A stretch of 64,000 nucleotides of DNA. It comes from an uncultured Bacteroidota bacterium. GTDB lineage: Bacteria; Bacteroidota; Bacteroidia; Flavobacteriales; BACL11. The stretch is from positions 205,566 to 269,565 of the forward strand of contig CACIJW010000001.1 in assembly GCA_902587125.1 (NCBI GenBank), written 5' to 3'. The position numbers and the translations under genes were made by a program. Below the pieces are notes generated by a model, which saw only the letters and a program-made list of their open reading frames with translations, did no database searches and was not told where the DNA came from. This document shows, piece after piece, positions 5,257 to 39,210 of the stretch (positions within the stretch are counted from its first letter, which is position 1; the number at the start of each line of letters is the position of its first letter).

Positions 5257-6000
5257 TTATTTTTTATTTATTGCTTTAAAAAAATTATCTCTCATTGTGA
5301 TACTAATACCATTGTTTTCGCCTAATCTTTCTGGGTGAAACTGAACAGCAATCATAAATGGATGTAAGTTACTATCTAATACAATCGCTTCTGGCAGCAT
5401 ATCATTTGAACGAGCTAAAACAATGACTCCCTTTGCTAAATCATTCAATCCTTGATGATGCCATGAGTTAACATTAAAAGATGATGTAGTGTCATTTTTT
5501 GGAAAGATAAAAGAATTATAAGTGTTCTGAGGATCTACCAAGTAAATGGAATGATTCACCTCTCCATTATTTCGATGAGTGACAGTATTTCCTATTTGAG
5601 TGGGAATATCAGCGTATAATGATCCTCCAGCAGCTACATTAATCATTTGCATTCCTCTACAAATACCTATAGTTGGAATTGAATTATTAAAGGCGTAATC
5701 AAATATTAATTTTTCTAATGTATCTCTATAATGATTAATCGTTTCACACAAATAAAGATTAGATGCATTGTCATACATAAGTGGGTTAATGTCTTCCCCT
5801 CCTGTTAAAACAATACCATCCACGATACTCAACAAAGAGTCTAAATTATTTGCTTGATAAGCATTTAAAATATTATATTTTTCATCCTCTAACCACTTTA
5901 CATAATTAAATGATGATTTAGATAATAGTATGTTTTTCTGCTTATTTGGAGTACAAGAAAGAAATATAGTGATAAAAAATAAGAAGGATATTTTATACAT
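5257..6000 (-). CDS. Peptidase C26 / gamma-glutamyl-gamma-aminobutyrate hydrolase family, predicted lipoprotein
   Basis: LTGGED, GICRG (catalytic Cys), VNSWHHQG, VQFHPE (His-Glu); N-terminus MYKISFLFFITIFLSC resembles a lipoprotein signal. Confidence 0.85.
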   Translation of the reverse strand: MYKISFLFFITIFLSCTPNKQKNILLSKSSFNYVKWLEDEKYNILNAYQANNLDSLLSIVDGIVLTGGEDINPLMYDNASNLYLCETINHYRDTLEKLIFDYAFNNSIPTIGICRGMQMINVAAGGSLYADIPTQIGNTVTHRNNGEVNHSIYLVDPQNTYNSFIFPKNDTTSSFNVNSWHHQGLNDLAKGVIVLARSNDMLPEAIVLDSNLHPFMIAVQFHPERLGENNGISITMRDNFFKAINKK

Positions 6001-6150
6001 GGTGGTTAAATGAGTAAAAATATAAAATGAAAATCAAAAAATTATTTATTTGTGCAACACAATTTTTATTTATTCATAATCTGTAAATAAAAATGAAAAA
6101 TTTAATATCACTTTATGGTTTTAAATTTTTAATTCTTTTTATAGCGTTTT

Positions 6151-6192
6151 CTTGCATTTTTTTGCAATTTTTTGCAATTTTTTGCAATTTTT
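6151..6192. repeat. 10-bp tandem repeat (TTTGCAATTT)x3 plus one degenerate copy
   Basis: cttgcatttt tttgcaattt tttgcaattt tttgcaattt; exact copies at 6161-6190. Confidence 0.9.
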
Positions 6193-6545
6193 ACACTTTA
6201 TAAACATTTTTATAATTTTTATAATATTTTTTATAAAAGGAATAATTAAAAAACTTATAGTTTAGAATGATTTAAATAGGTTTTTAAGATGTTTTATTTA
6301 ACTTTTGTGATTTTTTTGTGCTTTTTTAACAATTTAGCTTAATTATATATGTATAATAATGATTAATTTATTAATTATAAAATATTTGATTTTTTTTAAC
6401 TTCTTTTTACACTTTTTAATACTTAATTACCGTTTTTTTGAATTTTTTACTTTTTTTTAGTCTTTTTTTGACATACAATGTTGTTTTTTTTAAATTTTAG
6501 AATTTAAAATATTATGCAGCACATAACATTTACTAATTGGGTTGA

Positions 6546-6553
6546 TAAATTTG
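6546..6553 (+). promoter_or_regulatory. -7 element TAaaTTTG, 4 nt before ATG 6558
   Basis: TAAATTTG-taga-ATG. Confidence 0.6.
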
Positions 6554-6557
6554 TAGA

Positions 6558-6911
6558 ATGAAAAAATTAATTATTACCTTATTAGTATTGATAGCTAATT
6601 TATCATATGCGTCATTTCCAATTAATAGTCTGTCAATGGATACAACCATTAATAAAAAGAGTGAAACATTAGAACAGTATCAGAAAAGATTAATAAAGCA
6701 GGGGTTTTATAACTCTGAAAATGAGATATTAAATTCATTTACAAAAAAGAATAAGAAATCTAAAAAGTCAAGATTTTTACCTAACTGGAAATTATGGCAA
6801 AAAGCATTATTAATTATTCTATGTATACCGATAATTATTGTTATTTATTATATTATTTTCCCTCCATCAATATCTTTTAAAGAAGAAGATTTGATTATAT
6901 GGTCCGATTAG
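6558..6911 (+). CDS. Hypothetical exported/membrane protein (signal peptide, basic linker, C-terminal TM helix)
   Basis: MKKLIITLLVLIANLSYA|SFP signal-peptide pattern; hydrophobic ALLIILCIPIIIVIYYIIFPP; has its own -7 promoter element. Confidence 0.7.
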   Translation: MKKLIITLLVLIANLSYASFPINSLSMDTTINKKSETLEQYQKRLIKQGFYNSENEILNSFTKKNKKSKKSRFLPNWKLWQKALLIILCIPIIIVIYYIIFPPSISFKEEDLIIWSD

Positions 6912-6943
6912 ACGCTAATGATTTCAATAGACGCTAATGATTT
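6909..6943. repeat. 16-bp direct repeat TAGACGCTAATGATTT x2 with 3-bp spacer
   Basis: Copies at 6909-6924 and 6928-6943; the first overlaps the TAG stop of ORF 6558-6911. Confidence 0.9.
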
Positions 6944-6962
6944 TTAAACTTTTAAAAATCAC

Positions 6963-8291
6963 TCAGATTTCCTTTAAGATCATATCTACAACAAAATCAT
7001 CATCCCATTTTTTTTCTATTTGAGGTAGTTTCATGATTTTTTCCATTATTTGTTCTTGTTTCTTACCAACTTCCCAAGCTGTTGAATACTTGATATTTGA
7101 AAAGCTAACCATACTATACAGAGGTAACCATTTTTCTGGGTGCAATTTTGAGACTTTTTGTTCAATTTTCTTTTGTAATAAAAAATCAGGATCCGCTGTT
7201 TTATCTCTCATGACTATAAAATTGTGCAATGACAGATCTTGCAAACCATCACCCTCTGGCTTTCTATCAATTGAAAATTGATCAAAGCATTTTTCATAAT
7301 TTTCTTTATAGATGTCTAGCATATCTGAAAGTACTCTGCAATCTTCAAAGCCAGCATTCATACCTTGACCATAAAAAGGCACGGTAGCATGAGCTGAATC
7401 ACCAATAAGTAAAACATTTTTTTTGTTCCAGGGGAAGGTTTTAACTATTCCAAGCTCAGAAGTAGGATTGGCCTGCCATTGCTCATAAAGATTGGGAACT
7501 AGTTTAGCAAAGTCCGGAAAATGCTTGTTGAAATAGTGAATTGTTTCTTTCTCAGTACTTAAATTTTCAAATGAATCTTTTCCGCGTTTAGCAGCAAATA
7601 ATGTGCAGGTGAAGCTTCCATCTAAATTAGCAAGAGCTATAACCATAAAATTTCCTCTTGGCCATATATGTAGAGCTTCTTTTTCAATTAAGTAAGAATT
7701 GTTTGGCCCTGATGGTATCAAAAGTTCTTTATAGTCGTACTCTATTTTATTGTAATCATACATATGCCCTAGTTTTTCAACCATTTTAGCTCTTACATTT
7801 GAAAAAGTACCATCTGCACCAACAATAAAATCAGCTACATATGTTTTTTCTTGATCTAGCTGCAAAAATGTAGCTTTTGTATTATTAAAATCTACATCAA
7901 CACATTTTGAATTGAAATGTATTTCAGCGCCATACTTTTCTGCAAGATTTAGCATTAACAAATTAAGCTCTACTCTTGAAACAGAAAAAATTGCCTGATC
8001 AGATTCTCCATATTGTTGAAATGTTAAATTTCCTTTATTATCATGCATAACCCTTCTATACATTGGTATGGCAATTTTTTTAACATACTCGTGAATATCA
8101 GCTTGTTCCAGGGATGTCCAACCTCTTTTAGATAAAGCAAGATTGATAGATTTTCCAGCAGTAATCTTTTGAGTTCTTAAGTCTTTTCTTCTCTCAAAAA
8201 GTTGAACTGAATATCCTTTTTTAATTAGATGAATAGCACACAATGAACCAACTAGGCCAGCACCAATTACTATTACTTTTTTTTCTTTCAT
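6963..8291 (-). CDS. kmo: Kynurenine 3-monooxygenase
   Basis: GAGLVG FAD motif, GKSINLALS, EALHIWPRG, LIGDSAHATVPFYGQGMNAGFED, WLPLYSMVSF. Confidence 0.95.
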   Translation of the reverse strand: MKEKKVIVIGAGLVGSLCAIHLIKKGYSVQLFERRKDLRTQKITAGKSINLALSKRGWTSLEQADIHEYVKKIAIPMYRRVMHDNKGNLTFQQYGESDQAIFSVSRVELNLLMLNLAEKYGAEIHFNSKCVDVDFNNTKATFLQLDQEKTYVADFIVGADGTFSNVRAKMVEKLGHMYDYNKIEYDYKELLIPSGPNNSYLIEKEALHIWPRGNFMVIALANLDGSFTCTLFAAKRGKDSFENLSTEKETIHYFNKHFPDFAKLVPNLYEQWQANPTSELGIVKTFPWNKKNVLLIGDSAHATVPFYGQGMNAGFEDCRVLSDMLDIYKENYEKCFDQFSIDRKPEGDGLQDLSLHNFIVMRDKTADPDFLLQKKIEQKVSKLHPEKWLPLYSMVSFSNIKYSTAWEVGKKQEQIMEKIMKLPQIEKKWDDDFVVDMILKEI

Positions 8292-9538
8292 AATAATTTT
8301 TTTAGCGTTTGATAAAAATTAAATGTATCAGTAAAAGTATTGTATAAAGGAACAGGAGCTATTCTAATTACATCTGGCTCTCTCCAATCTGCTACGATAC
8401 CATTTTCAGTCAAATTATTAAATAGTTTTTTATCATAATTTTTTACTCTTATGGACAATTGACACCCTCTCATTGGGACATCTATAATTTCAATGTTTTT
8501 ATTATCAATGCTTTTTATTAAAAACTCTAAATAATTAGTTAATACTTTTGATTTTTTTATTAAATCATCCATTCCTACTTTGTCAAAGATAGACAGTGAA
8601 GCAAAGACAGGAGCTAGTGAAAAAATTGGTGGATTACTCAACTGCCATCCTTCAGCACTTTTGATTGGTTTAAATTTGTCATCCATTAAGAACCTTTCCT
8701 TTTTATTATGTCCCCACCAACCAGTGAATCTTGGAAGTTCCACATTGTGAAACCTTTCATTTACGAAAGCTCCTGCAATAGCACCAGGTCCTGAGTTTAG
8801 ATACTTGTAAGTGCACCAAACAGCAAAATCGACATTCCACTTGTTCAGCTCTAATTTTACATTTCCAATTGCATGAGCTAAGTCAAAACCAACTACAATT
8901 CCATTCTCATGACCGACCCTTGTGATTTTTTGCATATCAAATAACTGGCCAGTATAATAATTTACACCCCCGATTAAGATTAAAGCAATTTCATTAGAGT
9001 TTTCTTTAATAATTTTCTCAATATCTTCTTGTCTAATAAAATGCTCACCTTTTCTTGGCTCAAGTTTGATTAATGCCTCATCAGCTTTAAATCCATGAAA
9101 TTTAATCTGAGATTCAACTGCATAAATATCGGAGGGGAACGCGTCTTTTTCAATTAAAATTTTAAATTTATTTTTTTCAGGTTTATAAAAAGACACCATC
9201 ATTAAATGAAGATTAACTGTTAAAGTATTCATAGCAATCACTTCACTACTTTTTGCACCAATTAACTTACTGTAGCTTATACTCAACATCTCATGATATG
9301 GAAGCCATGGATTTTTTGCATGAAAATGTCCTTCAACACCATGAGTTTTCCAGTCATCAATTTCCTGAATTATATATTCTTTTGTTTTTTTTGGTTGTAG
9401 TCCAAGAGAATTGCCGCAAAAATATATTAACTCTTTCCCTTGTTTATTCTTGGGTATGAAAAATAAATCTTTATAACTTTTTAGACTATCTTTTTGATCA
9501 AGCTCTTCACAAAATGATTTATCAGTACTATACTTCAT
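8288..9538 (-). CDS. kynU: Kynureninase (probable ATG at 9538)
   Basis: YFCGNSLGLQP, MNTLTVNLH, DLAHAIGN, WCTYKYLNSGPG (PLP Lys), GWWGH; ATGA overlap with kmo. Confidence 0.96.
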   Translation of the reverse strand: MKYSTDKSFCEELDQKDSLKSYKDLFFIPKNKQGKELIYFCGNSLGLQPKKTKEYIIQEIDDWKTHGVEGHFHAKNPWLPYHEMLSISYSKLIGAKSSEVIAMNTLTVNLHLMMVSFYKPEKNKFKILIEKDAFPSDIYAVESQIKFHGFKADEALIKLEPRKGEHFIRQEDIEKIIKENSNEIALILIGGVNYYTGQLFDMQKITRVGHENGIVVGFDLAHAIGNVKLELNKWNVDFAVWCTYKYLNSGPGAIAGAFVNERFHNVELPRFTGWWGHNKKERFLMDDKFKPIKSAEGWQLSNPPIFSLAPVFASLSIFDKVGMDDLIKKSKVLTNYLEFLIKSIDNKNIEIIDVPMRGCQLSIRVKNYDKKLFNNLTENGIVADWREPDVIRIAPVPLYNTFTDTFNFYQTLKKLL

Positions 9539-10328
9539 TAACTTCAAAAATTATTGGTTTACTAGGCGCTGCATCAGAAACAAATGAAGGGGTTTGTATA
9601 TTTAAAAGATATTTTCCATCAATAATATCGTTAGAGACAAATATCATTTCAGTGATAGTTTTTCCTCTTGCGGCCAAATTAAGTTTTTTATTATTTGTTT
9701 CCCAAAAAATATTATGACAAGTTAATTTACCTTCATCTAGTAACCTATCAACAGAAGGAAAATCAACAAGTAAATGTTTTACACCTAACTCAACAATATA
9801 ATTCATTGCTTCTATTGTAAAAAAGGGAGACTCATTACCAGAATATTTTTTTTTCAACTTATTTTCATTATTTGGAACTGTTCTTATGATTAGCCCATCT
9901 AAAAATGAAGTGTCAACACTTGAAAGTTTACTTTCTATTTCTTTTTTTGTTACTACTAAATCATCATTATTTAAGCGCGGTGAATAAGTTTCATTTGTTA
10001 CAGAGGGTGTCAAAGTAATTAAAGTTGCCGGCATAAACATGTCTCTTAATGAATTATTTATGCTAACACGTTCGTCTGTAATATGACCTATACACTCAGT
10101 ATGTGTACCGTTGCAGTGTGGAGTTAAAGTATAGGTTTCAAAATTACATGGACCTCCAAGCCTGGTATCTCCTACGAAACTGTTGTCTTTATATGCAAAA
10201 GAGCTAGCTTGATTAACGTTATAGGTATTTGGTTGCTCGCCGTTAAATTTTAAAGGAATAGATAAATCAGTAAATTTTTTAAAATTTATAAAATAAGATT
10301 TGGCACCAACTTTTATTTCAGCATTCAT
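9528..10328 (-). CDS. kynB: Cyclase-family kynurenine formamidase
   Basis: PHCNGTHTEC metal motif, LLVDFPSVDR, SDAAPS; lies inside the kynurenine cluster. Confidence 0.8.
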   Translation of the reverse strand: MNAEIKVGAKSYFINFKKFTDLSIPLKFNGEQPNTYNVNQASSFAYKDNSFVGDTRLGGPCNFETYTLTPHCNGTHTECIGHITDERVSINNSLRDMFMPATLITLTPSVTNETYSPRLNNDDLVVTKKEIESKLSSVDTSFLDGLIIRTVPNNENKLKKKYSGNESPFFTIEAMNYIVELGVKHLLVDFPSVDRLLDEGKLTCHNIFWETNNKKLNLAARGKTITEMIFVSNDIIDGKYLLNIQTPSFVSDAAPSKPIIFEVNEV

Positions 10329-10344
10329 TTATTATGATTTAATC

Positions 10345-11370
10345 TTAATTGTAATTTAACCAGTTTAAAACATTCTTATGCCAGATGTCTTTACCCTCTT
10401 GTTCTGTAAAGATACCTGTTTCTACAGCATAATCTAGTACCCTTCCTGGGTATGAGGTTCCTACACCCTCCATCTCTCCCAATGGAAATGGATCATCTAA
10501 ACCCATCATTATTTGACTTACTCCTACTCGCTTTTTAAGTAAGTCTAATGTATAAGAATCATGAACTAATGTATCAAAGAATAAATTTTTATGCCCTAGC
10601 GACTTCCTTGGGTCATGTAATTTTTCAAAGATATCAGGACGACCATCATATCCTTGAATTCTTCTGCCGTAATTCGCAATGCCCAGCATCCCTCCATGAG
10701 CAAAACAAATTCTTATTTTTGGAAATCGATTAGGGAGATCTCTTAAAGTGTATATATGTAAAGTATCAGCGCATTGAGCCATCATCCATATTAAGTGAAA
10801 CCTCCAATACTCATTTTTTAAAGCTATCATTTTTTCTCCATCATAAGGATGAATTTGAATTGCTAGCTCATGTTTATTTGCAAGTTCGTATATAGGATCC
10901 AAGTGCTTATCTGCAGTAGATAACCATTCACCTTTTTTGTTTAAAAAATGTGTTGGAAGACATAAAACTTTTAAATCTAGTTCATTAACACATCTATCAA
11001 TTTCTCTAAATGCATGTTCCATGTATAATGGCTGTACAACAAATCCACAGGTAAAAATTTCTGGAAAATCACTTTGAACTGAAGCATTAAAATCGTTTTG
11101 AAAAGTAATACCGTCTATACAATCTTGTTTTTCCCAACCATTACAATAAAGCTGAGAAAGGCATAACATTACTCCATGATCAATTTTGTTTTGTCTCATC
11201 CACTCTATCTTTTCCTTTAAAAAAAAACTTGATCCAGTTATTGGTCTAGACCAATTTCCTTGCCTCATAAATTTTTTATCATTGTCAATCCAAAACAATT
11301 TCTTGTCTTTCATGAACTTTGGAATCTGATTAGGTTCCGGAAGTATATGTCCATGTCCATTAATTCTCAT
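10345..11370 (-). CDS. 2-amino-3-carboxymuconate-6-semialdehyde decarboxylase (ACMSD, amidohydrolase family)
   Basis: HGHILP (HxH), FAHGG, DTLVHD, MGLDDPFPLGE; directly downstream of 3-HAO. Confidence 0.88.
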   Translation of the reverse strand: MRINGHGHILPEPNQIPKFMKDKKLFWIDNDKKFMRQGNWSRPITGSSFFLKEKIEWMRQNKIDHGVMLCLSQLYCNGWEKQDCIDGITFQNDFNASVQSDFPEIFTCGFVVQPLYMEHAFREIDRCVNELDLKVLCLPTHFLNKKGEWLSTADKHLDPIYELANKHELAIQIHPYDGEKMIALKNEYWRFHLIWMMAQCADTLHIYTLRDLPNRFPKIRICFAHGGMLGIANYGRRIQGYDGRPDIFEKLHDPRKSLGHKNLFFDTLVHDSYTLDLLKKRVGVSQIMMGLDDPFPLGEMEGVGTSYPGRVLDYAVETGIFTEQEGKDIWHKNVLNWLNYN

Positions 11371-11381
11371 ACAAAAGAATT

Positions 11382-11915
11382 TTATTCACTAACATATCTC
11401 TTATCAGCTTCCATTACTTCACCAGTTTTTGGGCACGTTCTCAATTTTTCACTTGAGTAAAATCTTTTAAAAACTGGCAAAAAGTCTTTTTCGATATTTG
11501 TTAAATGAAAGTACTCCTCGTAAAGTAATTCATTAGCAGTATCGGAGAACCACATCAACCCATCCCTATCATCTTTCTTTCTTTTTCTTTCAATTACTAA
11601 ACCTATTGAGCCTTCAGATCTAACTGGTGAGTGAGGTACTTTTGGTGGTAGTAAAAACATTTCTCCTTCATTAATTGGAACTTCAACAAGTTTACCATCT
11701 TGTTGAGTTTTAACAACAATACTTCCTTCAATCTGATAAAAAAGCTCTTCTGTTTCATTATAATGATAATCTTTCCTTGCGTTTGGTCCAGCCACAATCA
11801 TTACTATATAATCTTCGGATTCAACATATAGATTTTTGTTTCCCACAGGTGGTTTTAAGAGGTGTCTATTTTCATCAATCCATTTTTGTAAGTTAAAAGG
11901 TTTTTTAATGTTCAT
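11382..11915 (-). CDS. nbaC: 3-hydroxyanthranilate 3,4-dioxygenase
   Basis: LKPPVGNK, GPNARKDYHYNETEELFYQ, PHSPVR cupin motifs. The rubredoxin-like Cys pairs of some bacterial HAOs are not intact (only CPKTG). Confidence 0.95.
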   Translation of the reverse strand: MNIKKPFNLQKWIDENRHLLKPPVGNKNLYVESEDYIVMIVAGPNARKDYHYNETEELFYQIEGSIVVKTQQDGKLVEVPINEGEMFLLPPKVPHSPVRSEGSIGLVIERKRKKDDRDGLMWFSDTANELLYEEYFHLTNIEKDFLPVFKRFYSSEKLRTCPKTGEVMEADKRYVSE

Positions 11916-11925
11916 AATAAATGTT

Positions 11926-12342
11926 TTAAATTGTTGCTATTACTTTTAATTCTATTGCTATTGGTGTCGGTAACGACTTTATTTCTATTGTTGTTCTAGT
12001 AGGCTGATTATCTGAAAAATAATCAGCATAAATTTTATTGTACTTTTTAAAGTCATCTTTCATGTTAGTCAGAAAAACCTGTACATCAATTATCTTTTCC
12101 CAGCATGAGCCACAGTCCTCTAAAATAACTTTAATATTGTTAAAGACAGAGTGACACTGCTTTTCAATATCGTAATCTACTATTTTGCCTTCATTATTTA
12201 GAGTTACTCCAGGAATATCTTTGCTATCTAATGTTCGTGGCCCTACTCCAGATAAAAAGAGTAAGTTTCCAAACTTTCTTGCATGTGGATATAGCCCAAC
12301 AGCCTGAGGTGCTCTACTGGAATTTAATTTTTCTCCGTTCAT
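11926..12342 (-). CDS. RidA family protein, probable 2-aminomuconate deaminase
   Basis: GLYPHA, LFLSGVGPR, PTRTT, IAIELK; between HAO and the semialdehyde dehydrogenase. Confidence 0.8.
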   Translation of the reverse strand: MNGEKLNSSRAPQAVGLYPHARKFGNLLFLSGVGPRTLDSKDIPGVTLNNEGKIVDYDIEKQCHSVFNNIKVILEDCGSCWEKIIDVQVFLTNMKDDFKKYNKIYADYFSDNQPTRTTIEIKSLPTPIAIELKVIATI

Positions 12343-12345
12343 AAA

Positions 12346-13788
12346 TTAAATTTTTACACAAATATTTTTTGGTTCAGTAAAAAACTTAAGTGAATTAAAA
12401 CCTCCCTCTCTTCCCACACCAGAGTTTTTCATTCCTCCAAACGGGATTCTTAAATCTCTTAACAGCCATGTATTAATCCAAATAACACCTGAGTCAATTT
12501 TAGCAGCCACTCTATGTCCTCTACTAATATCTTTAGTAAAAATAGATGCTGACAATCCAAACTCACTAGAGTTAGCCATCATTATTACATCATCTTCACT
12601 TTCAAAAGGGATTAGTGTTACAACAGGACCAAAAATTTCTTCATTGTTAATTGAACAATCATATGCTAAATTTTCAAAAACTGTCGGTTGAATATAATAA
12701 CCATTTTTAAGCTCTCCCTCCAGTATCAATCTTTCTCCTCCACAAAGTAAAATACCACCTAATTTTTTGGCTTCATTAATTTTTAATAAAATTTTGTTCA
12801 TATGCTCCTCTGAAACGACAGCACCTAAATGGCTATTAGAACTTTTTGGGTCACCAACAATGAGTTTTTTTGCTTTATCAACTAACGCAGATTTAAATTT
12901 TTCATAAATTTTATTTTGCACAAATACTCTTGAGCCACACAAACAAATCTGACCTTGATTAGTAAATGCAGCTCTTGAAGCAGTACTTACTGCTTTGTCA
13001 AAGTCACAGTCATCGAAGATTATATTTGGATTTTTACCACCAAGTTCTAGTGATAGTTTTTTAAAGTACGGTGCTGTTATTTTTGAGATGTGTTTTCCTG
13101 TGTCACTTCCTCCTGTAAATGAAACAATTGGCACATCCTGATGAGTTGTTAGAGCATCCCCAAGCTTTTCTCCTCTACCATGTACTATATTAAGAACTCC
13201 TTTTGGGAAATTAATTTCTTTACAGATCTTACTGAGTAAATATGCAGTCATAGGCGTTATCTCAGAGGGCTTAGCTACAACTGTATTTCCTGTAGCTAAA
13301 GCAGGTGCAATTTTCCAAGTTAGTAGGTATAATGGTAAATTCCAAGGAGAAATACATGCAGCAACTCCAATTGGAACTCTGAGTGTATAATTAATTGCTT
13401 CTCCGTCCATCTCATGAACATCAGAGCTATCATGTAAAATAGCGCCAGCAAAAAATCTCAAGTTAGCTGAGGCTCTTGGTATATCAACTTTAGCTGCCAA
13501 GCTTAAAGGTTTACCGTTATCTCTACTTTCTGCTGCTACCAACATATCAAAATTTTCTTCAATAGCATCAGCTAATTTGTTCAAAATATCTGATCTTTCT
13601 TGCTTTGTAGTTTTACTCCAAAAAGAGTATGCAACCTTAGCAGATTTAACAGCTTCATTAACATCATCTGCACAAGAGTCGGGAACTAAACTATATGCTT
13701 TACCACATGATGGATCTATATTTTCAATATAGATTTTTGAGCTTGGTTCAATTAGTTCTCCGTTTATATAATTTAAAATTTTTTCCAT
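12346..13788 (-). CDS. 2-aminomuconic 6-semialdehyde dehydrogenase (ALDH8A1-like)
   Basis: SPWNLPLYLLTWKIAPALA, FTGG, LELGGKNP, NQGQICLCGSR, EEIFGPV; operon context. Confidence 0.88.
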   Translation of the reverse strand: MEKILNYINGELIEPSSKIYIENIDPSCGKAYSLVPDSCADDVNEAVKSAKVAYSFWSKTTKQERSDILNKLADAIEENFDMLVAAESRDNGKPLSLAAKVDIPRASANLRFFAGAILHDSSDVHEMDGEAINYTLRVPIGVAACISPWNLPLYLLTWKIAPALATGNTVVAKPSEITPMTAYLLSKICKEINFPKGVLNIVHGRGEKLGDALTTHQDVPIVSFTGGSDTGKHISKITAPYFKKLSLELGGKNPNIIFDDCDFDKAVSTASRAAFTNQGQICLCGSRVFVQNKIYEKFKSALVDKAKKLIVGDPKSSNSHLGAVVSEEHMNKILLKINEAKKLGGILLCGGERLILEGELKNGYYIQPTVFENLAYDCSINNEEIFGPVVTLIPFESEDDVIMMANSSEFGLSASIFTKDISRGHRVAAKIDSGVIWINTWLLRDLRIPFGGMKNSGVGREGGFNSLKFFTEPKNICVKI

Positions 13789-14567
13789 TACAAGCTAGTA
13801 GTTCTTCCACCGTCAACTGGCAGATTAATACCATTAATGTAGCTAGCTGATGGACTACATAAAAAAGCAATAGCATCCGCGACCTCAACCGCTTCTCCAA
13901 ATCTATTAGCTGGCACGCTGGAAATCATTTTTTTAGTAATCTCTTCGACACTCTTATTTAAGGTTTTAGATTTTGTCTCAATTAAAGTTTTTAATCTATT
14001 TGTATCAGTAAAGCCTGGTAAAACGTTATTAACTGTGATTCCATGTTCAGCCAACTCAAAAGAAAGAGTCTTCGCCCAATTTGCAACTGCTGCTCTAATT
14101 GTATTTGAAACACCCAAGCCAGGAATGGGAGATTTAACAGATGTTGAAATAATATTTACAATTCTTCCAAACCCTTCTTTTTTCATGCCCTCAACAACAT
14201 GCTGAACAAGAATATGATTGTTAATTAAATGCATTTCGAAAGCCTTATTAAATTCATTTAGATTTGCATCAATGAGCTTGCCTGAAGCAGGGCCACCGGT
14301 ATTATTTATTAATATATGAATAGGTGATTTAATCTTTTTAATTTCTTGTTCGAGCCTGCCGGAGTTTTGAAAATCAATACATAAATAATTATGAACTTGG
14401 CCCTTGGTATTATCTAAACGCTGTGATATTTGTTTAAGTTTTGTTTCGTTTCTGGCAAGCAAATAAATATTTGCACCAAGTTTAGCTAGCACTTCAGCAG
14501 TTGCCAAACCTATTCCTTGAGTAGATCCACAAACAACTGCATTCAAATTGGTTAATTCTAAATTCAT
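13788..14567 (-). CDS. Atypical short-chain dehydrogenase/reductase (SxxxR in place of YxxxK)
   Basis: CGSTQGIG, INNTGGP, VSNTIR at the catalytic position, NNVLPG, GINLPVDGG. Confidence 0.9.
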   Translation of the reverse strand: MNLELTNLNAVVCGSTQGIGLATAEVLAKLGANIYLLARNETKLKQISQRLDNTKGQVHNYLCIDFQNSGRLEQEIKKIKSPIHILINNTGGPASGKLIDANLNEFNKAFEMHLINNHILVQHVVEGMKKEGFGRIVNIISTSVKSPIPGLGVSNTIRAAVANWAKTLSFELAEHGITVNNVLPGFTDTNRLKTLIETKSKTLNKSVEEITKKMISSVPANRFGEAVEVADAIAFLCSPSASYINGINLPVDGGRTTSL

Positions 14568-14569
14568 AA

Positions 14570-15649
14570 TTAATTACTAAATCCTAGTTTGCTTTTAATT
14601 TTATCTGGTAATTCTGGCATAAAAGATCTTGAAAGCAGCAAAGTTGATATCTTTGAAATATCGTTAAATATTCTGTTCTGATAAACAGTATTTTTGAGAT
14701 AATCTGCTCCGTCACTACCTCCGGTTCCAATTTTTTTACCTAACATTTTATCAACCATTTGAGCATGTCTAAATCTCCAATTTGAAATGATATGATCAAT
14801 ATCTAATAGATTTTTAAGAAATCTGTAAGGCATGTGAAGTATAGGTTGGTCCTTGTATTGGAAAATAAGCAGTGCTGATATTAAAGCATTCTTTGAAAAA
14901 GCGTTTGAGTTTTTTTCTTCAAAGCTAGCTTTTGATACTATCTCTTTATAATATTCTTTTGATCCCTCCAACATTTTGATCCTAATGTTCTTTTCGTTGT
15001 CCGTGAGAATATCACTGGACTTAATACTATTCATTTCTTTACTCATCATATTTTCAATTGCTGTAGTGTAATGTTCCACAAAATCAAAATCCTCGTAATT
15101 GACAAATGGATTTCTATTTAACCATTTTTCAACTAAATCAAAAATTGATTGTTGATCTTCTAATGTCAAGATTTCTTTTTTCTCTTCTGCTGAAAACTGA
15201 TCATGATATGGACAGTTTCCAAAAGAATGTCTTTGATTAATTTTCAATCCAAGCATAACTTCGATTTTTCTAAACTGATGACTTTGAAAGCCTGATGCTG
15301 GCGAAAGATAGTCTCTAAAATCAAGAAAGTCGATTGAAGTCATTGTTTCTAATACATCAATCTGTTTAACTAGCAAGTTCAATATTTCTTTTATCCGATC
15401 CGTTCTTTTTACAACTTTGATAATCTCTTTTTCATCAATTTTTTCGTCTTTGATAGTGTCTTTGACTGATTTGATCTCGTGAATAATTTGTTTAAACCAG
15501 AGCTCATAAGCTTGATGAATAATTATAAACAACATTTCGTCATGTGACTCATCACCTAATTCTTTGCTCATTGGAAACTGAGCATGAAGAATTTTATCTA
15601 GCTTTAAGTAATTTTGATAATGTAGGGCTGTTTTTTTTAAATCTACCAA
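14570..15649 (-). CDS. kynA: Tryptophan 2,3-dioxygenase (long form, TTG start)
   Basis: YLKLDKILHAQ, HDEMLFIIIHQAYELWFKQ, FRDYLSPASGFQSHQFR, WRFRHAQMV, GTGGSDG. Confidence 0.96.
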   Translation of the reverse strand: MVDLKKTALHYQNYLKLDKILHAQFPMSKELGDESHDEMLFIIIHQAYELWFKQIIHEIKSVKDTIKDEKIDEKEIIKVVKRTDRIKEILNLLVKQIDVLETMTSIDFLDFRDYLSPASGFQSHQFRKIEVMLGLKINQRHSFGNCPYHDQFSAEEKKEILTLEDQQSIFDLVEKWLNRNPFVNYEDFDFVEHYTTAIENMMSKEMNSIKSSDILTDNEKNIRIKMLEGSKEYYKEIVSKASFEEKNSNAFSKNALISALLIFQYKDQPILHMPYRFLKNLLDIDHIISNWRFRHAQMVDKMLGKKIGTGGSDGADYLKNTVYQNRIFNDISKISTLLLSRSFMPELPDKIKSKLGFSN

Positions 15650-15681
15650 TTAATATTTTTCATTAAAAATAGTAAAGATGA

Positions 15682-16488
15682 TTAGATTTCAAAACCATTT
15701 AGGATAAAAAGTATTGTAGGCATGAGTATAAATATTCCCTCAAACAAAAATGAACATTTTTGTGATGTAAATTGATTGCTTTTTAAGAACAAAAATACAG
15801 ACAGCAAAATCGTAGTAATCAAGAAAGTAAGAAAGAATTCTAAATCAACATAATTAAAATGCCAAATTATGAATGTTATGAGAGTTGAAATTGATGATAA
15901 TATAATAGATAATATTTTTGACTTTTGAATTCCTAGCTTTATTGGAATAGTTACAAGTTTAGACTTATCAAACTCTATATCTCTTATATCAAAAGGAATC
16001 GTTATCGCTAAGACTTTCAAATAGATTGCTAAGAAAATAAGTATTATTTTTTCGTCTATTGCAACCAATAATTCGACTGCAGGTAAAAGAACTGAAAAGT
16101 ATGACCAAGAAAATGCAATCATAAATATTTTAAAATACTTAATCTTTCTTAAATATGAATAAAAAAAGATGAATGGAGTTAACACAATAAAGCTTATTGC
16201 GGAAATTAATTTTAAATTAAACAACAAATAAATTAGAATAAAGAGAAGTAATATAAAGAGTAATTTGTTAAGACTAAATTTATTCATCGAAATAAAGCCC
16301 TGATTATCATTTTCTTTTAAATTGTTTATAAAATTATAGGCTAAAAAACAAGAAAAAAAGGAAAATGATAAAATTTTAAATGAAAAAAATTTTAATCCTA
16401 TCATAACCAGTAAACATAGAAAAGAAAAGGAAAAAGAAACCCAAAAATGATAGCGAACTAAATATTTAAAAAAAGATTTAAAAAACAA
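15682..16488 (-). CDS. UbiA prenyltransferase-like integral membrane protein
   Basis: About 8 TM helices; PFDIRDIEFD Asp-rich motif followed by LVTIP; the first Asp-rich motif is degenerate. Confidence 0.6.
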   Translation of the reverse strand: MFFKSFFKYLVRYHFWVSFSFSFLCLLVMIGLKFFSFKILSFSFFSCFLAYNFINNLKENDNQGFISMNKFSLNKLLFILLLFILIYLLFNLKLISAISFIVLTPFIFFYSYLRKIKYFKIFMIAFSWSYFSVLLPAVELLVAIDEKIILIFLAIYLKVLAITIPFDIRDIEFDKSKLVTIPIKLGIQKSKILSIILSSISTLITFIIWHFNYVDLEFFLTFLITTILLSVFLFLKSNQFTSQKCSFLFEGIFILMPTILFILNGFEI

Positions 16489-19240
16489 TGTTTACAATCT
16501 TTCCTGGAACAATAATTATTTTTTTTGGAGATTTCCCTGATAAATAATGAGCTGTTTTTTCATTTTCTAAAACACATTTTTGAATGTAATCCTTATCTGA
16601 ATCCCTACTGAAATCCAGTTTGAATCTAGTTTTGCCATTAAATGAAATTGGATATTGAACGTTTTTCTTTAATATTTTAGTTGGATCATAATCAGGCATT
16701 TTAGCAAATGCAACAGAAGTTTTATTTCCTAATTTTTGCCAAATCTCCTCAGCAATGTGGGGCGCAAAAGGTGAAAGTAAAATCGTAAAGTCTTTTACTA
16801 TGGATCTTTTATTACATTTAAGATCTCTGAGTTTGTTTAAACAAATCATCATAGAACTAACAATTGTATTAAATGAAAATCTTTTCAAATCCTCATTAAT
16901 TTTATTAATTGTTAAATGTATAGTATTTAACTCCTCATCACTTGGCTGATCGTTTGAAACTAAGAAGCAATTTTTATCATCGTGAACTAAATCCCAAAGT
17001 TTTTTTAAAAAATTATGTACACCAGTAATTCCGTTTGTGTCCCAAGGTTTATATTGCTCTAGTGGACCTAAAAACATTTCATATAATCTTAGAGTATCTG
17101 CTCCATATTTTAAAATTAGTTCGTCTGGAGTTTGAGTATTATACTTAGACTTACTCATCTTTTCAACTTCAAAGCCACAAACATATTGTTGTTTTTCATT
17201 TAATATAAAGCTAGAATCTTTGTATTCATCTTTTGATGACCTAAAAGATTCAACATTAAGAATATCATTTTTTACAAGTTTAATATCAACATAAAGATTT
17301 ATACAGTCATAGTTATTTTTTAAATCATAACTTACAAAAGTATTTTTGTTTTTTAATTTGTAAACAAAATTTGACCTTCCTAGAATCATCCCTTGATTGA
17401 TTAATTTTTTGAAGGGTTCATCGAAAGGTATTATTTGAATATCAAATAAGAACTTAGTCCAAAATCTGGAATACATTAAATGACCAACAGCATGCTCGGC
17501 ACCACCAATATATAAATCTACTTGATTCCAATAGTTTAGTTTTTTAGCGTCACAAAAAATCTTATCATTTTTTGGATCAATAAATCTTATAAAATACCAT
17601 GATGACCCAGCCCATCCAGGCATTACATTATAATCTAATCTATCGCCACGAAAAACATTCCAGTCTTCTTTTTTTGCACGCGCTAAAGGAGGCAATCCTT
17701 CTTTAGTTGGTTTGTATTCATCAATTTCAGGTAAAATAGGAGTTTCATTATCTGGAAAGATCTTTGGAATGTCATTTTCATAATAAACAGGAAATGGTTC
17801 TCCCCAATATCTTTGCCTACTAAATATAGCATCTCGTTGTTTGAAGTTAGTTCTACTGAAACCTAATTTTTTAATCTCTAAAAAACTAACTATCTTCTGC
17901 GAAGCTTCAATTGATGACAATCCATTTACAAAACCTGAGTCTTTTAAAATTATTTCTTTTTCTTCGTGTGCAGATTTGGAAATATCAACTCCCTTGAAAA
18001 TATTTTTAATTTCTAAATCAAATTTATTTGCAAATGACCAATCTCTTTGATCACCACACGGCACAGCCATAATTGCTCCAGTACCGTAGTCTATCAACAC
18101 GTAATCAGAAATCCAAATTGGCATCTTTTTATTCGTTATTGGGTGTAAGGCATACATGCCAGAAAAAACACCAGTAATTAGTTTAGATTTTTTTCTTTCA
18201 ATTTCTGTTTTTTGCTTGCAGTCTTTAACATAAGCTGAAACATGTTTACTCTCAATAAATTCTTTAATCATTGGATGCTCTGGTGACAATACCAAAAAGG
18301 TTACTCCAAAAATGGTGTCTGGTCTTGTGGTATATACTTCAATTGATGCATTTTCCTTTTCATCAATCTTAAAGAAAATAGAAGCTCCAGTTGATTTTCC
18401 AATCCAATTTTTTTGAATCTCTTTGATTGAGCTTGGCCAGTCAATTTTATTTAAATCCTCAAGCAGTCTATTAGAGTATGCAGTAATCCTAAGGGCCCAT
18501 TGTTTCATTTTTCTTTTAATAACAGGGTACCCTCCTCTCTCTGAAAAACCATCCTTGACCTCGTCATTTGCCAAAACTGTTCCTAGTTCTTCACACCAAT
18601 TCACTGTGGTTTCAGTTAAAAATGCTAACCTAAATTTATGCAAAATGTTTTCTTTTTCAGAATCAGAAAAATTCATCCATTCAACATTTGTAAATGGGTA
18701 GATTTTCGAACTGCTGAAAGCGAAATCTTTGGAAAATCCATTTAATTTAAACTCGTCAATCAAATTAGAAATTGACATAGCTTTATCTTCTTTTAATGAG
18801 TAAAAACTATCATAAAGCCTTCTAAAAATCCATTGAGTCCATTTATAATATGAACTATTTGAAGTCAAAATTTTTCTGTCCCAGTCATATGCAAAGCCCA
18901 TTTTTTTTAACTGTTTTTCATAGCGCTTTGTATTTACAGCAGTTGCTTTGGCAGGGTGTATTCCCGTTTCAATAGCATATTGTTCTGTTGGCAATCCAAA
19001 TGAATCGTAGCCCATTGGGTGTAATACATTATATCCATTTAAGATCTTATACCTCGCATATATATCTGAAGCAATATATCCAAGAGGATGACCAACATGT
19101 AGCCCTGAACCTGAAGGATAGGGGAACATGTCAAGAACATAAAACTTTGGCTTATTTGAATCTTGCTTTACAGAAAAAGTTTTGTTTTTTTCCCAAAAAT
19201 GTTGCCATTTATTTTCTATTTCAATAAAATTATACTTCAA
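16478..19240 (-). CDS. leuS: Leucine--tRNA ligase (TTG start)
   Basis: DMFPYPSGSGLHVGH, QKNWIGKS, YTTRPDT, RQRYWGEP, KMSKS. Confidence 0.98.
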   Translation of the reverse strand: MKYNFIEIENKWQHFWEKNKTFSVKQDSNKPKFYVLDMFPYPSGSGLHVGHPLGYIASDIYARYKILNGYNVLHPMGYDSFGLPTEQYAIETGIHPAKATAVNTKRYEKQLKKMGFAYDWDRKILTSNSSYYKWTQWIFRRLYDSFYSLKEDKAMSISNLIDEFKLNGFSKDFAFSSSKIYPFTNVEWMNFSDSEKENILHKFRLAFLTETTVNWCEELGTVLANDEVKDGFSERGGYPVIKRKMKQWALRITAYSNRLLEDLNKIDWPSSIKEIQKNWIGKSTGASIFFKIDEKENASIEVYTTRPDTIFGVTFLVLSPEHPMIKEFIESKHVSAYVKDCKQKTEIERKKSKLITGVFSGMYALHPITNKKMPIWISDYVLIDYGTGAIMAVPCGDQRDWSFANKFDLEIKNIFKGVDISKSAHEEKEIILKDSGFVNGLSSIEASQKIVSFLEIKKLGFSRTNFKQRDAIFSRQRYWGEPFPVYYENDIPKIFPDNETPILPEIDEYKPTKEGLPPLARAKKEDWNVFRGDRLDYNVMPGWAGSSWYFIRFIDPKNDKIFCDAKKLNYWNQVDLYIGGAEHAVGHLMYSRFWTKFLFDIQIIPFDEPFKKLINQGMILGRSNFVYKLKNKNTFVSYDLKNNYDCINLYVDIKLVKNDILNVESFRSSKDEYKDSSFILNEKQQYVCGFEVEKMSKSKYNTQTPDELILKYGADTLRLYEMFLGPLEQYKPWDTNGITGVHNFLKKLWDLVHDDKNCFLVSNDQPSDEELNTIHLTINKINEDLKRFSFNTIVSSMMICLNKLRDLKCNKRSIVKDFTILLSPFAPHIAEEIWQKLGNKTSVAFAKMPDYDPTKILKKNVQYPISFNGKTRFKLDFSRDSDKDYIQKCVLENEKTAHYLSGKSPKKIIIVPGKIVNIVF

Positions 19241-19297
19241 TATTTTTGAAAGTTCTTGATTTGGGTAAAGATAAATACTTTATTTATTTTAGCAGTG

Positions 19298-20179
19298 ATG
19301 AACAGAAAAAGTAATTCATTGTTGAAGCTGAGGCTAATCTCGTCTTCTGCTTCAATAGTTATAAGCCTTAGTTTGGTACTTTATGTAATTGGATTACTTG
19401 CTTATATTCTAATAAATACTAACAGTTTCTCAAAAAAAATTAAAGAAAATATTACGTTTTCTATTCTTCTTAAAGATAGCGCCAAAGAAATTGATATTGT
19501 TAAGTTTCAGAAATACATTGACGCTGAAGATTTTGCAAAAAATAGTATATACATAAATAAAGATGAAGCAACAAAAAATTTAATTTCTGAACTTGGAGAA
19601 GATTTTACTGATTTTTTAGGATATAGCCCTCTACTTGCTTCCATTGATTTAAAATTAAAAGCTGAACACACCACCTTTGAAAAAATAAACCAGTTAGAGG
19701 CAGAGCTAATGAAATTTGATATTGTACAAGAAATTTATTATCACAAAAATTTAGTTCAAAATATAAATACCAATATTAACAAAATATTGATGTTTCTTTC
19801 TTCATTCTGTTTGCTTTTATCTATAATTTCTATAGCGCTAATTAACAATTCTATTAGATTATCGATATACTCAAAAAGATTTGTGATTCAAACCATGTCT
19901 TTGGTTGGAGCAGAAAACTGGCAAATTCAAAAACCATTTTTAATAAAAAGTTTAAACCAGGGGATGTATAGTTCGATTTTTGCAATTTTTCTAATGATTG
20001 GAAGTATCCAACTAATTCAAAATGAAACAGCATCTATATTAAATGTAAATGATTTGAAACTTATAAGCTTTATTTTTATTTTTATTTTTGTTTCAGGACT
20101 ATTTTTGAGCTGGCTTTCAACATTTTTTGCGGTCAGAAAATACGTTAGAATTGATGAACATAAATTATACAAACAATAA
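19298..20179 (+). CDS. ftsX: Cell division permease FtsX (probable ATG at 19298)
   Basis: ISLSLVL TM, ELGEDF..FLGYSPL, NNSIRLSIYSKRFVIQTMSLVGA, QKPFL. Confidence 0.92.
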   Translation: MNRKSNSLLKLRLISSSASIVISLSLVLYVIGLLAYILINTNSFSKKIKENITFSILLKDSAKEIDIVKFQKYIDAEDFAKNSIYINKDEATKNLISELGEDFTDFLGYSPLLASIDLKLKAEHTTFEKINQLEAELMKFDIVQEIYYHKNLVQNINTNINKILMFLSSFCLLLSIISIALINNSIRLSIYSKRFVIQTMSLVGAENWQIQKPFLIKSLNQGMYSSIFAIFLMIGSIQLIQNETASILNVNDLKLISFIFIFIFVSGLFLSWLSTFFAVRKYVRIDEHKLYKQ

Positions 20180-38011: not shown

Positions 38012-38019
38012 TATTTTTG
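38012..38019 (+). promoter_or_regulatory. -7 element TAttTTTG upstream of gcdH
   Basis: Exact motif 12 nt before ATG 38032. Confidence 0.55.
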
Positions 38020-38031
38020 AAAAAAAAATAC

Positions 38032-39210
38032 ATGAAACCAGATTTATTTACATCTCCCGATTACTTTCATCTTAATGAGCTCCTTACTGAGGAACATAGA
38101 TTAATAAGAGACACATCTAGAGAATGGGTTAAAAAAGAAGTTTCTCCCATTATCGAAGAAGCTTGTCAAAAAGCTAAATTTCCTGATCAAATTTTGAAAG
38201 GCTTAGCAGAAATTGGAGCATTTGGTCCATATATTCCAGCTGAGTATGGAGGTGCCGGATTAGATCAAGTCTCATATGGCTTAATTATGCAAGAGTTAGA
38301 AAGAGGAGATAGTGGAATACGATCAACCGCTTCCGTCCAATCATCACTTGTCATGTATCCTATCTATAAGTATGGTAATGAAGAACAAAGAAAAAGATTT
38401 TTACCAAGGCTTGCCAGCGGCGAGCTAATAGGATGTTTTGGTTTAACTGAAGCTGATCATGGATCTAATCCTGGTGGCATGACAACAAATTTTAAAGATT
38501 GTGGAGATTACTTTTTACTTAATGGCGCTAAACTTTGGATATCTAATTCCCCATTTGCAGATATAGCTATCGTTTGGGCTAAGAATGAAGAAGGCAGAAT
38601 AAAAGGGCTGATTGTTGAAAGGGGTATGGATGGCTTTACAACGCCGGAAACTCATGGAAAATGGAGCCTAAGAGCATCGGCAACTGGCGAGCTTGTTTTT
38701 GACAATGTAAAAGTTCCAAAGCAAAATTTACTACCAAACAAAGATGGGCTTGGAGCACCTCTTGGATGCCTAGACTCTGCTAGATACGGAATTGCGTGGG
38801 GTGCAATTGGAGCTGCAATGGATTGCTACGACACAGCGCTAAGATACTCCAAGGAAAGACACCAGTTCGGTAAACCAATTGGTTCATTTCAACTGCAACA
38901 GAAAAAACTTGCTGAAATGATAACTGAAATAACTAAAGCTCAATTTTTGACTTGGAGGCTTGGGGTACTTAAAAATGAAGATCGAGCTAGCACTGCTCAA
39001 ATCTCAATGTGCAAAAGAAACAATGTTGACATGGCTTTGAAAATTGCAAGAGAATCTAGACAAATTTTAGGAGGTATGGGTATAACTGGAGATTATCCAA
39101 TAATGAGACACATGATGAATTTAGAGTCTGTTGTTACTTATGAGGGAACTCATGATATTCACCTATTAATAACTGGACTAGATATTACAGGGCTTAATGC
39201 GTTCAAATAA
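38032..39210 (+). CDS. gcdH: Acyl-CoA dehydrogenase, glutaryl-CoA dehydrogenase type (probable ATG at 38032)
   Basis: ELERGDSGIRSTASVQSSLVMYPI (GCDH-type Arg), GCFGLTE..HGSNP, WISNSP, ARYGIAWGA, TYEGTHDIH. Confidence 0.85.
   Translation: MKPDLFTSPDYFHLNELLTEEHRLIRDTSREWVKKEVSPIIEEACQKAKFPDQILKGLAEIGAFGPYIPAEYGGAGLDQVSYGLIMQELERGDSGIRSTASVQSSLVMYPIYKYGNEEQRKRFLPRLASGELIGCFGLTEADHGSNPGGMTTNFKDCGDYFLLNGAKLWISNSPFADIAIVWAKNEEGRIKGLIVERGMDGFTTPETHGKWSLRASATGELVFDNVKVPKQNLLPNKDGLGAPLGCLDSARYGIAWGAIGAAMDCYDTALRYSKERHQFGKPIGSFQLQQKKLAEMITEITKAQFLTWRLGVLKNEDRASTAQISMCKRNNVDMALKIARESRQILGGMGITGDYPIMRHMMNLESVVTYEGTHDIHLLITGLDITGLNAFK

Follow-up and report, generated by a model that had tools for sequence, protein, structure and literature searches.

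Which enzyme carries 2-aminomuconate onward to 2-oxoadipate in the breakdown of tryptophan is a question that has stood since the 1960s, and a gene cluster in the DNA analysed here raises it in a bacterial setting. The DNA (hereafter the window) is a 64,000-nucleotide stretch from an uncultured Flavobacteriales bacterium of the BACL11 lineage (assembly GCA_902587125.1, contig CACIJW010000001.1, positions 205,566–269,565); the host genome measures 1.54 Mb in 36 contigs, is 95.85% complete and has a G+C content of roughly 30%. At positions 6963–15649, nine genes encode the kynurenine pathway from tryptophan through 2-amino-3-carboxymuconate semialdehyde (ACMS) to 2-aminomuconate, together with a predicted RidA-family 2-aminomuconate deaminase (AMD) and an atypical short-chain dehydrogenase/reductase (SDR). 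We think it probable, judging from sequence and gene context, that this cluster has a dual role, in which it would supply NAD precursor and also degrade tryptophan by way of AMD and then the SDR to 2-oxoadipate.

The open reading frame (ORF) listing of the window shows nine co-directional frames arranged head to tail on the minus strand, from 15649 down to 6963:

14570–15649, minus strand: kynA, tryptophan 2,3-dioxygenase (TDO), long form; 359 amino acids, PF03301 at 303 bits over the whole 346-position profile.
13788–14567, minus strand: atypical NADP(H)-type SDR without YxxxK, a candidate reductase; 259 amino acids, function proposed from the evidence below.
12346–13788, minus strand: putative 2-aminomuconate-6-semialdehyde dehydrogenase (ALDH); 480 amino acids, PF00171 at 541 bits.
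11926–12342, minus strand: predicted RidA-family 2-aminomuconate deaminase, AMD type; 138 amino acids, PF01042 plus the AMD insertion.
11382–11915, minus strand: 3-hydroxyanthranilate 3,4-dioxygenase (HAAO/nbaC); 177 amino acids, above the cut-offs of NF009763 (257 bits) and TIGR03037 (221 bits).
10345–11370, minus strand: ACMS decarboxylase (ACMSD), of a divergent but strongly conserved type; 341 amino acids, 102 bits to human ACMSD 4igm.
9528–10328, minus strand: putative Cyclase-family arylformamidase, kynB-like and divergent; 266 amino acids, PF04199 at 54 bits.
8288–9547, minus strand: kynU, kynureninase; 419 amino acids, TIGR01814 at 450 bits against a cut-off of 246.
6963–8291, minus strand: kynurenine 3-monooxygenase (KMO); 442 amino acids, 286 bits to KMO 6lkd.

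The junctions between these genes are short. Two nucleotides separate the TDO and SDR genes, the SDR and ALDH frames overlap by one nucleotide, and gaps of 3, 10, 11 and 16 nucleotides follow in turn from ALDH through RidA, HAAO and ACMSD to the cyclase gene; this gene overlaps kynU by 20 nucleotides when the longest ORF is called, and kynU overlaps the KMO gene by 4. The nine genes thus spaced appear to form one operon-like unit. An earlier interpretation made from the letters of the DNA (the sequence-only reading) had proposed nine coupled genes at this place, and the coordinates, the profile matches and the matches to sequences of solved structures all agree with it. The gene identities are directly supported by these matches. 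All five enzymes that lead from tryptophan to ACMS are encoded (TDO, arylformamidase, KMO, kynureninase and HAAO), and the pathway as far as 2-aminomuconate is complete within the cluster, again as that reading had held.

The weakest identity of the nine is that of the arylformamidase. This protein has no NCBIfam match and no PDB match by single-sequence search, and a profile of ten orthologues matches kynurenine formamidases 4co9 and 4cz1 only, and weakly (E 0.007). Its His-rich metal motif, PHCNGTHTECIGH, is invariant among orthologues, and with moderate confidence we predict that the protein is a kynurenine formamidase. The top NCBIfam model for the ALDH is TIGR03216 (2-hydroxymuconic semialdehyde dehydrogenase), with a score of 549 bits that is under the cut-off of the model; this likeness, along with the position of the gene in the operon, suggests that the substrate would be 2-aminomuconate semialdehyde.

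The RidA-family protein is a predicted 2-aminomuconate deaminase of the AMD type. It aligns to the solved 2-aminomuconate deaminase 6izh with only a one-residue gap across an insertion of about 12 residues, which generic RidA proteins do not have, and its PTRTT segment aligns with the PARTT of 6izh, covering the conserved Arg. We had also considered bit scores as a means of separating AMD from generic RidA proteins; they do not discriminate, and the insertion does. A separate housekeeping RidA gene is found at C2:112367–112714. Several relatives of the window's host present a further gene at this place, as their nine-gene operons carry a GNAT acetyltransferase gene of about 150 codons between ALDH and RidA (L037:8466–8921, and likewise in L043, L045, L049, L067, L070, L078 and L082) that is not in the operon of the window.

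What could follow 2-aminomuconate was assessed by searching for the genes of known lower routes in the host genome and in a fixed sample of 151 Flavobacteriales genomes, which are related to one another, so that counts from the sample should be read as a pattern, not as a statistical test. The sequence-only reading had noted that the window has no genes for 4-oxalocrotonate decarboxylase, hydratase and aldolase, which is the case, and had named the presence of such genes elsewhere as what would speak against it; none was found in the genome. Specifically, no 4-oxalocrotonate decarboxylase or hydratase of the MhpD/XylI/XylJ group was found in the whole genome, which has just two FAA_hydrolase genes: the first neighbours a homogentisate dioxygenase-like gene, and the second is YcgM-like. 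The DmpG aldolase domain (PF07836) has no match in the genome or in any of the 151 sampled genomes, the 4-OT tautomerase (PF01361) has no match in the genome, and the 4-oxalocrotonate decarboxylase model TIGR03218 reaches its cut-off in 0 of the 151 genomes, with one weak match. For the host, these negatives hold within its 95.85%-complete assembly. The ASPDH family (PF01958) was likewise not found in the window genome or in 10 relatives.

The gene that accompanies the deaminase where this branch is missing is that of the SDR. Among 80 loci around ACMSD homologues, whose ORFs were clustered, HAAO is adjacent in 51, and an SDR orthologue is present in 48 of these 51; ALDH is present in 35 and RidA in 23. 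Three arrangements maintain the link: the nine-gene operon, a (RidA-)ALDH-SDR unit divergent from HAAO-ACMSD, and SDR divergent from HAAO-ACMSD. The nine-gene order itself, when profiled, recurs in about 20 of the 80 loci and in further relatives, and in family f16 SDR and ALDH form a two-gene unit amid unrelated genes.

The same association is evident in the sample of 151 genomes, which comprises 93 with SDR, 93 with HAAO, 77 with ALDH and 80 with AMD-type RidA. The SDR occurs in each of the 77 genomes with ALDH, and in 66 of them it lies within 1.5 kb of the ALDH gene; AMD-type RidA is present in 75 of the 77, and exactly one ACMSD in 74. Genus g10 is represented by nine genomes, which have HAAO and in which SDR, ALDH, AMD and ACMSD were all not found. 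Because the SDR tracks ALDH, AMD and ACMSD and is missing from the HAAO-only genus, we assign it to the ACMSD branch rather than to the trunk of the pathway that serves NAD. A variant operon, L094 (G059:C6), has the order kynA-SDR-ALDH-RidA-cyclase-kynU-KMO, with HAAO and ACMSD on another contig (C4:19560–21100).

The SDR is atypical. A Rossmann motif is present as CGSTQGIG at the TGxxxGxG position, and the Arg of an LLARNE segment after strand 2 suggests that the enzyme would use NADP(H). The classical Ser-Tyr-Lys arrangement is not present, with S-N-T-I-R standing at the YxxxK position. This block is highly constrained, as GLGVSNTxR is invariant in 16 SDR orthologues that share 47–68% identity, and an SNxxR pattern is common to the nearest solved relatives, 5va8, 1o5i and 2z1n, which structural genomics has provided from Burkholderia, Thermotoga and Aeropyrum and which are uncharacterised.

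These sequence data bear, together with the co-occurrence counts, on the possibility that the host uses the classical route through 4-oxalocrotonate decarboxylase, 2-oxopent-4-enoate hydratase and 4-hydroxy-2-oxovalerate aldolase, encoded elsewhere or unassembled, with the SDR as a bystander or pseudo-enzyme. Genes could indeed be missing from an assembly of 36 contigs at 95.85% completeness, and the absence of the canonical Tyr and Lys would suit a pseudo-enzyme. However, none of the families of this route was found in the genome, and the zero counts for DmpG and for 4-oxalocrotonate decarboxylase above cut-off include all 77 ALDH-positive genomes. An SDR that is present in each of those 77 genomes, and whose active-site block does not vary among orthologues as divergent as these, also argues against a bystander, and we regard this explanation as close to refuted.

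The fold of the SDR points to a specific chemistry. A Foldseek search with its AlphaFold (AF2) model (pLDDT 87.8) places AerF (6jh7, 6jha and 6jhb) at the top with TM scores of 0.89–0.92, followed by NADP(H)-bound Burkholderia SDRs and, at rank 12, BacG/YwfH (3u4c). By sequence, too, AerF (131 bits) and BacG (100 bits) are the closest characterised relatives. The resemblance to these two enzymes, which act in aeruginosin Choi synthesis in Microcystis (AerF) and in bacilysin synthesis in Bacillus (BacG/YwfH; 3u49 and 3u4c), is directly observed in sequence and in the modelled SDR fold, and probably extends to the use of NADPH. BacG reduces a conjugated C=C bond in the course of bacilysin synthesis. 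The AerF structures contain NADPH and 4-hydroxyphenylpyruvate, the latter a 2-oxo-acid ligand in 6jhb, and the equivalent reaction of AerF, a conjugate C=C reduction of a 2-oxo-3-enoic acid, was reportedly described in a 2020 paper (reference 59 of PMC10143770). To convert 2-oxohex-3-enedioate to 2-oxoadipate, an enzyme would have to reduce a C=C bond in conjugation with a 2-oxo acid, as both of these do. The enzymes differ in that AerF and BacG share only 29–34% identity with the SDR and act on cyclic dihydro-hydroxyphenylpyruvate substrates in natural-product synthesis, whereas the proposed substrate of the SDR is a linear C6 dicarboxylate in catabolism. An ESM Atlas look-up of the SDR returned generic 'SDR family' clusters only, and a search of the available literature found neither a named 2-oxohex-3-enedioate or 4-oxalocrotonate reductase nor a paper dealing with this SDR in Bacteroidota.

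These observations suggest a path for the catabolic branch. ACMSD would decarboxylate ACMS, ALDH would oxidise the resulting semialdehyde to 2-aminomuconate, and the AMD-type RidA would deaminate this to 2-oxohex-3-enedioate (4-oxalocrotonate), whose conjugated C=C bond the Tyr-less SDR would then reduce with NADPH to give 2-oxoadipate. We infer both the substrate and the product of the SDR, and also its place after AMD; the sequence of ALDH, then AMD, then SDR is the most economical one. Whether the Tyr-less SDR is the missing enzyme for the conversion of 2-oxohex-3-enedioate to 2-oxoadipate, such that ALDH, AMD and SDR would constitute a third natural end to tryptophan catabolism, next to the 4-oxalocrotonate decarboxylase route of bacteria and the ASPDH route of metazoans, and perhaps a model for the fungal step, is in our judgement evenly balanced.

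The order of the last two steps may also be the opposite. Rid proteins hydrolyse imines and enamines, and the SDR might reduce 2-aminomuconate, as an analogue of ASPDH or of the 'cat-liver 2-aminomuconate reductase', leaving RidA to hydrolyse the enamine or 2-iminoadipate to 2-oxoadipate and ammonia. Such an order would suit the genomic arrangement, because SDR and ALDH make the tightest pair, with their one-nucleotide overlap here and their adjacency in 66 of 77 genomes, and would be apt for handing over the labile 2-aminomuconate, while AMD is often encoded far from this pair, though in the same genome. Moreover, a natural 2-aminomuconate reductase that depends on NAD(P)H has been shown in a preprint (bioRxiv 10.64898/2026.06.05.730449). 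Against it, the insertion that marks 6izh, the solved 2-aminomuconate deaminase, recurs in the RidA protein, and the nearest characterised relatives of the SDR use 2-oxo-3-enoic acids and not enamines. Two genomes (G064 and G137) that have SDR, ALDH and ACMSD and no AMD at the threshold used are compatible with either order. We consider the reversed order unlikely, and continue with deamination followed by reduction.

If 2-oxoadipate is the product, it could pass through the 2-oxoglutarate dehydrogenase (OGDH) complex, a handling that we infer, and then through glutaryl-CoA dehydrogenase to crotonyl-CoA and acetyl-CoA. A gene for the latter enzyme lies in the window, outside the operon and among unrelated genes:

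38017–39210, plus strand: glutaryl-CoA dehydrogenase (GCDH), the likely sink; 422 bits to human GCDH 1sir.

The genome also has one OGDH E1 gene (sucA), two 3-hydroxyacyl-CoA dehydrogenases and two saccharopine-dehydrogenase-family genes, which together with GCDH make a lysine-type sink for 2-oxoadipate and glutaryl-CoA plausible. A route via 2-oxoadipate, which the sequence-only reading had put forward, fits the conserved ALDH-AMD-SDR trio, the AerF/BacG-like fold of the SDR, the GCDH gene and the single OGDH E1.

That reading had also described the operon as oriented to degradation rather than NAD synthesis, which is too strong. It correctly noted that nadC is not in the cluster, and a profile search of the genome finds nadC on another contig (268 bits, above cut-off). 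NadA was not found in the 95.85%-complete genome, and the only match to the nadB model is a 674-amino-acid frame, under the cut-off, that by its size is probably a succinate dehydrogenase flavoprotein. With nadC present and nadA and nadB not found, the search of the genome yielded no de novo source of quinolinate other than the operon. TDO, the formamidase, KMO, kynureninase and HAAO would produce ACMS, and spontaneous cyclisation of ACMS would yield quinolinate for the unlinked nadC. We conclude that the operon serves both the supply of NAD precursor and catabolism.

Across the sample of 151 genomes, the NadA and HAAO routes are largely complementary. In f8, f9 and f12, which are HAAO-positive families, no NadA was found; among the HAAO-negative ones, f5, f7 and f14 have it in every sampled genome and f3 in four of five. 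The pattern agrees with the known replacement of the aspartate route to NAD by the kynurenine pathway in Flavobacteriales, which was reportedly described by Lima, Varani and Menck in 2009 (Mol Biol Evol 26:399; listed in PMC10143591), and the same replacement is said to have been reported by Kurnasov et al. in 2003. Some genomes depart from this pattern. Two members of the window genome's own family (G020 and G144) have nadA plus the complete nine-gene operon, so the operon is not kept there for NAD alone; a fragmented assembly of the same family (G094) has nadA with HAAO, ACMSD and SDR; and in a 97%-complete genome (G120) neither NadA nor HAAO was seen, and this organism may rely on salvage.

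The NAD data could also be taken to mean that the operon is essentially one for NAD synthesis, in which ACMSD, ALDH, RidA and SDR serve only to keep quinolinate and picolinate in check, as a valve for overflow or detoxification; 2-oxoadipate would then not be the end product, or would be excreted, and the SDR would perform another redox step on a semialdehyde or a 2-oxo/2-hydroxy acid. The gene content just described, with nadC and with no nadA or nadB found, agrees with this explanation, as do the small size of the genome (just 1.54 Mb), the fact that GCDH does not specifically follow the SDR and the existence of SDR homologues without kynurenine genes. However, genus g10 runs an NAD-only kynurenine pathway without ACMSD, ALDH, AMD and SDR, and the two nadA-positive genomes G020 and G144 have kept the nine-gene operon. 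Four conserved genes would also be a costly valve in a streamlined genome, and an AerF/BacG-type fold suits C=C reduction of AMD's own product. We therefore judge a mere valve to be very unlikely, and retain the dual role in NAD supply and catabolism as the preferred explanation.

Several observations nonetheless weigh against this preferred explanation, and above all against the part assigned to the SDR. The protein is without the catalytic Tyr and Lys, and its competence is assumed from the invariant SNTxR and from its NADP(H)-binding relatives. SDR homologues with 41–57% identity occur in genomes and loci without kynurenine genes; families f3 and f7 have SDR homologues but no HAAO or ALDH; stand-alone copies are present in two Chlorobiota metagenome-assembled genomes (MAGs), in Flavipsychrobacter and in Ca. 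Uabimicrobium; and plasmid-borne homologues (34–40% identity) reside beside DHDPS-family, dihydropyrimidinase, or fumarylacetoacetate hydrolase (FAH) and dicarboxylate-symporter genes. Homologues in such other contexts imply that the SDR subfamily is not monofunctional, and the assignment is limited to the ALDH-linked orthologues. Downstream of the SDR, the genome has the one sucA gene, and no dedicated 2-oxoadipate dehydrogenase was identified in it. GCDH is present in 118 of the 151 genomes, SDR-negative families included, and is near universal in free-living ones; we had considered it as a marker of the 2-oxoadipate route and rejected it as non-discriminating, since its presence is necessary for the proposed route and does not single that route out. 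Finally, co-transcription of the nine genes is suggested by their spacing alone.

The plasmid-borne SDR homologues were also considered as a guide to function. They have no kynurenine neighbours and gave no help in assigning the orthologue in the window. One of them, on plasmid p-LAD2 of Priestia aryabhattai (L130; NZ_CP072475.1), is 39.5% identical to the SDR and is flanked by a gene of the fumarylacetoacetate hydrolase family and one for a cation:dicarboxylate symporter, under GntR/FadR regulators, which hints that the wider subfamily acts on dicarboxylic 2-oxo acids. Another homologue (P0135, 428 amino acids) is 49% identical to the SDR over residues 173–425, and its N-terminal 170 residues are without a Pfam match, which makes it either a fusion or the product of a gene called too long.

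The ACMSD of the window deserves separate description. It scores 102 bits to human 4igm versus 46 bits to Pseudomonas fluorescens 2hbv, and 56 bits in Pfam. The alignment to 4igm preserves the HxH, HPYD, CFAHGG and DxPFPLGE segments and both substrate-binding Arg residues, such that the metal and catalytic residues (HxH, His, His and Asp) are intact; overall similarity is modest. Over the 80 loci (among them L014, L025, L033, L036 and L074), proteins of the window type are 73–97% identical. Represented in these loci are Chitinophagales, two Chlorobiota MAGs and Ca. Uabimicrobium (Planctomycetota), where the gene stands alone, with no kynurenine genes next to it. This is unusually strong conservation for a catabolic enzyme, or else reflects recent transfer.

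Two types of ACMSD, 27% identical to each other, share one slot in the operon: the window type (56 bits in Pfam) and a canonical type (155 bits in Pfam; for example L089:12029–13045). The window type is present in 36 of the 151 genomes, the canonical type in 47 and both together in none, and the type switches inside genera g3, g4 and g43, which looks like repeated replacement in place. At one stage ACMSD seemed to be far rarer than the SDR (36 versus 93 of 151 genomes), apparently breaking the link between them; the second ACMSD type in the slot explains the difference.

The flanks of the operon are occupied by housekeeping genes, namely leuS, a weak UbiA-like gene, a C26 peptidase gene and iPGM. 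A scan for promoter and terminator consensus sequences over positions 5900–19500 gave counts equal to or below those of shuffles, with consensuses that do not cover Bacteroidota promoters. The UbiA-like gene (15682–16488, minus strand) encodes a membrane protein with a Pfam score of 34.0 bits versus a cut-off of 34.2; it lies between leuS, which it overlaps by 11 nucleotides, and kynA, which begins 32 nucleotides after its end. Homologues with 31–38% identity have the same position in most nine-gene loci, where the region is wholly syntenic, and a functional link is not implied. On the other side, an ORF of 117 codons (6558–6911, plus strand) is convergent to the KMO gene and is the sole plus-strand gene in the run; it is without a Pfam match, and its homologues occur in the three closest loci only.

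The carriers of this operon are abundant small-genome marine Flavobacteriales, as judged from matches in Tara, single-cell and MAG data, and the operon thus bears on tryptophan turnover and NAD self-sufficiency in the sea. It indicates that a single operon can cover cofactor synthesis and catabolism together, as happens in mammalian liver. A widespread bacterial module that pairs a deaminase with a conserved reductase, where the sole other known continuation was not found, also provides a concrete candidate for expression.

The upper pathway and its role in NAD synthesis in Flavobacteriales are already known, and the ACMSD, ALDH and AMD steps match those of Burkholderia, Pseudomonas and fungal clusters. 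What appears to be new is that the 4-oxalocrotonate decarboxylase branch is systematically lacking and that a Tyr-less SDR apparently stands in for it. Like the kynurenine-dependent NAD synthesis systems of Flavobacteriales and Xanthomonadales, the operon has TDO, KMO, kynureninase and HAAO in place of nadA and nadB to feed nadC; to these it adds the branch of ACMSD, ALDH, AMD and SDR, which NAD-only versions within the order (genus g10) do not have. Compared with the Burkholderia cenocepacia tryptophan cluster and the Pseudomonas nba/amn clusters, it shares HAAO, ACMSD, a semialdehyde dehydrogenase and a RidA-family deaminase, leading to 2-oxohex-3-enedioate. From that intermediate the known clusters go on through 4-oxalocrotonate decarboxylase, hydratase, aldolase and acetaldehyde dehydrogenase, whereas the operon of the window has the Tyr-less SDR.

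Animals (TDO2, AFMID, KMO, KYNU, HAAO, ACMSD, ALDH8A1 and ASPDH) pass through the same intermediates down to 2-aminomuconate. The sequence-only reading had called the operon eukaryote-like, which holds in part: the TDO is of the long form and reaches 175 bits only against the bacterial model TIGR03036 (cut-off 391), and ACMSD and KMO score at least as high to animal as to Pseudomonas structures (for KMO, 262 bits to human 5x68 and 258 bits to the P. fluorescens enzyme). The description does not fit ACMSD in another respect, because the window protein is the more divergent of the two types that occupy its slot. Unlike in animals, the predicted formamidase is of the Cyclase family and not of the AFMID type. 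The proposal that the lower route proceeds as in animals did not stand either, as ASPDH was not found and a bacterial/fungal-type deaminase and the SDR occur instead. A recent preprint identifies ASPDH as the NAD(P)H-dependent 2-aminomuconate reductase (AMR) of animals, cites the Burkholderia 2-aminomuconate deaminase and describes a RidA-type deaminase in fungi, with subsequent steps lacking a gene assignment in both animals and fungi (bioRxiv 10.64898/2026.06.05.730449). In some Aspergillus 3-hydroxyanthranilate clusters an SDR is syntenic, and reduction to 2-oxoadipate has been raised as a possibility (PMC7842363). The operon described here resembles the fungal system in that a RidA-type deaminase (AMD) would act after 2-aminomuconate, and for the step after the deaminase, which has no assigned gene in fungi, it offers the SDR as a candidate.

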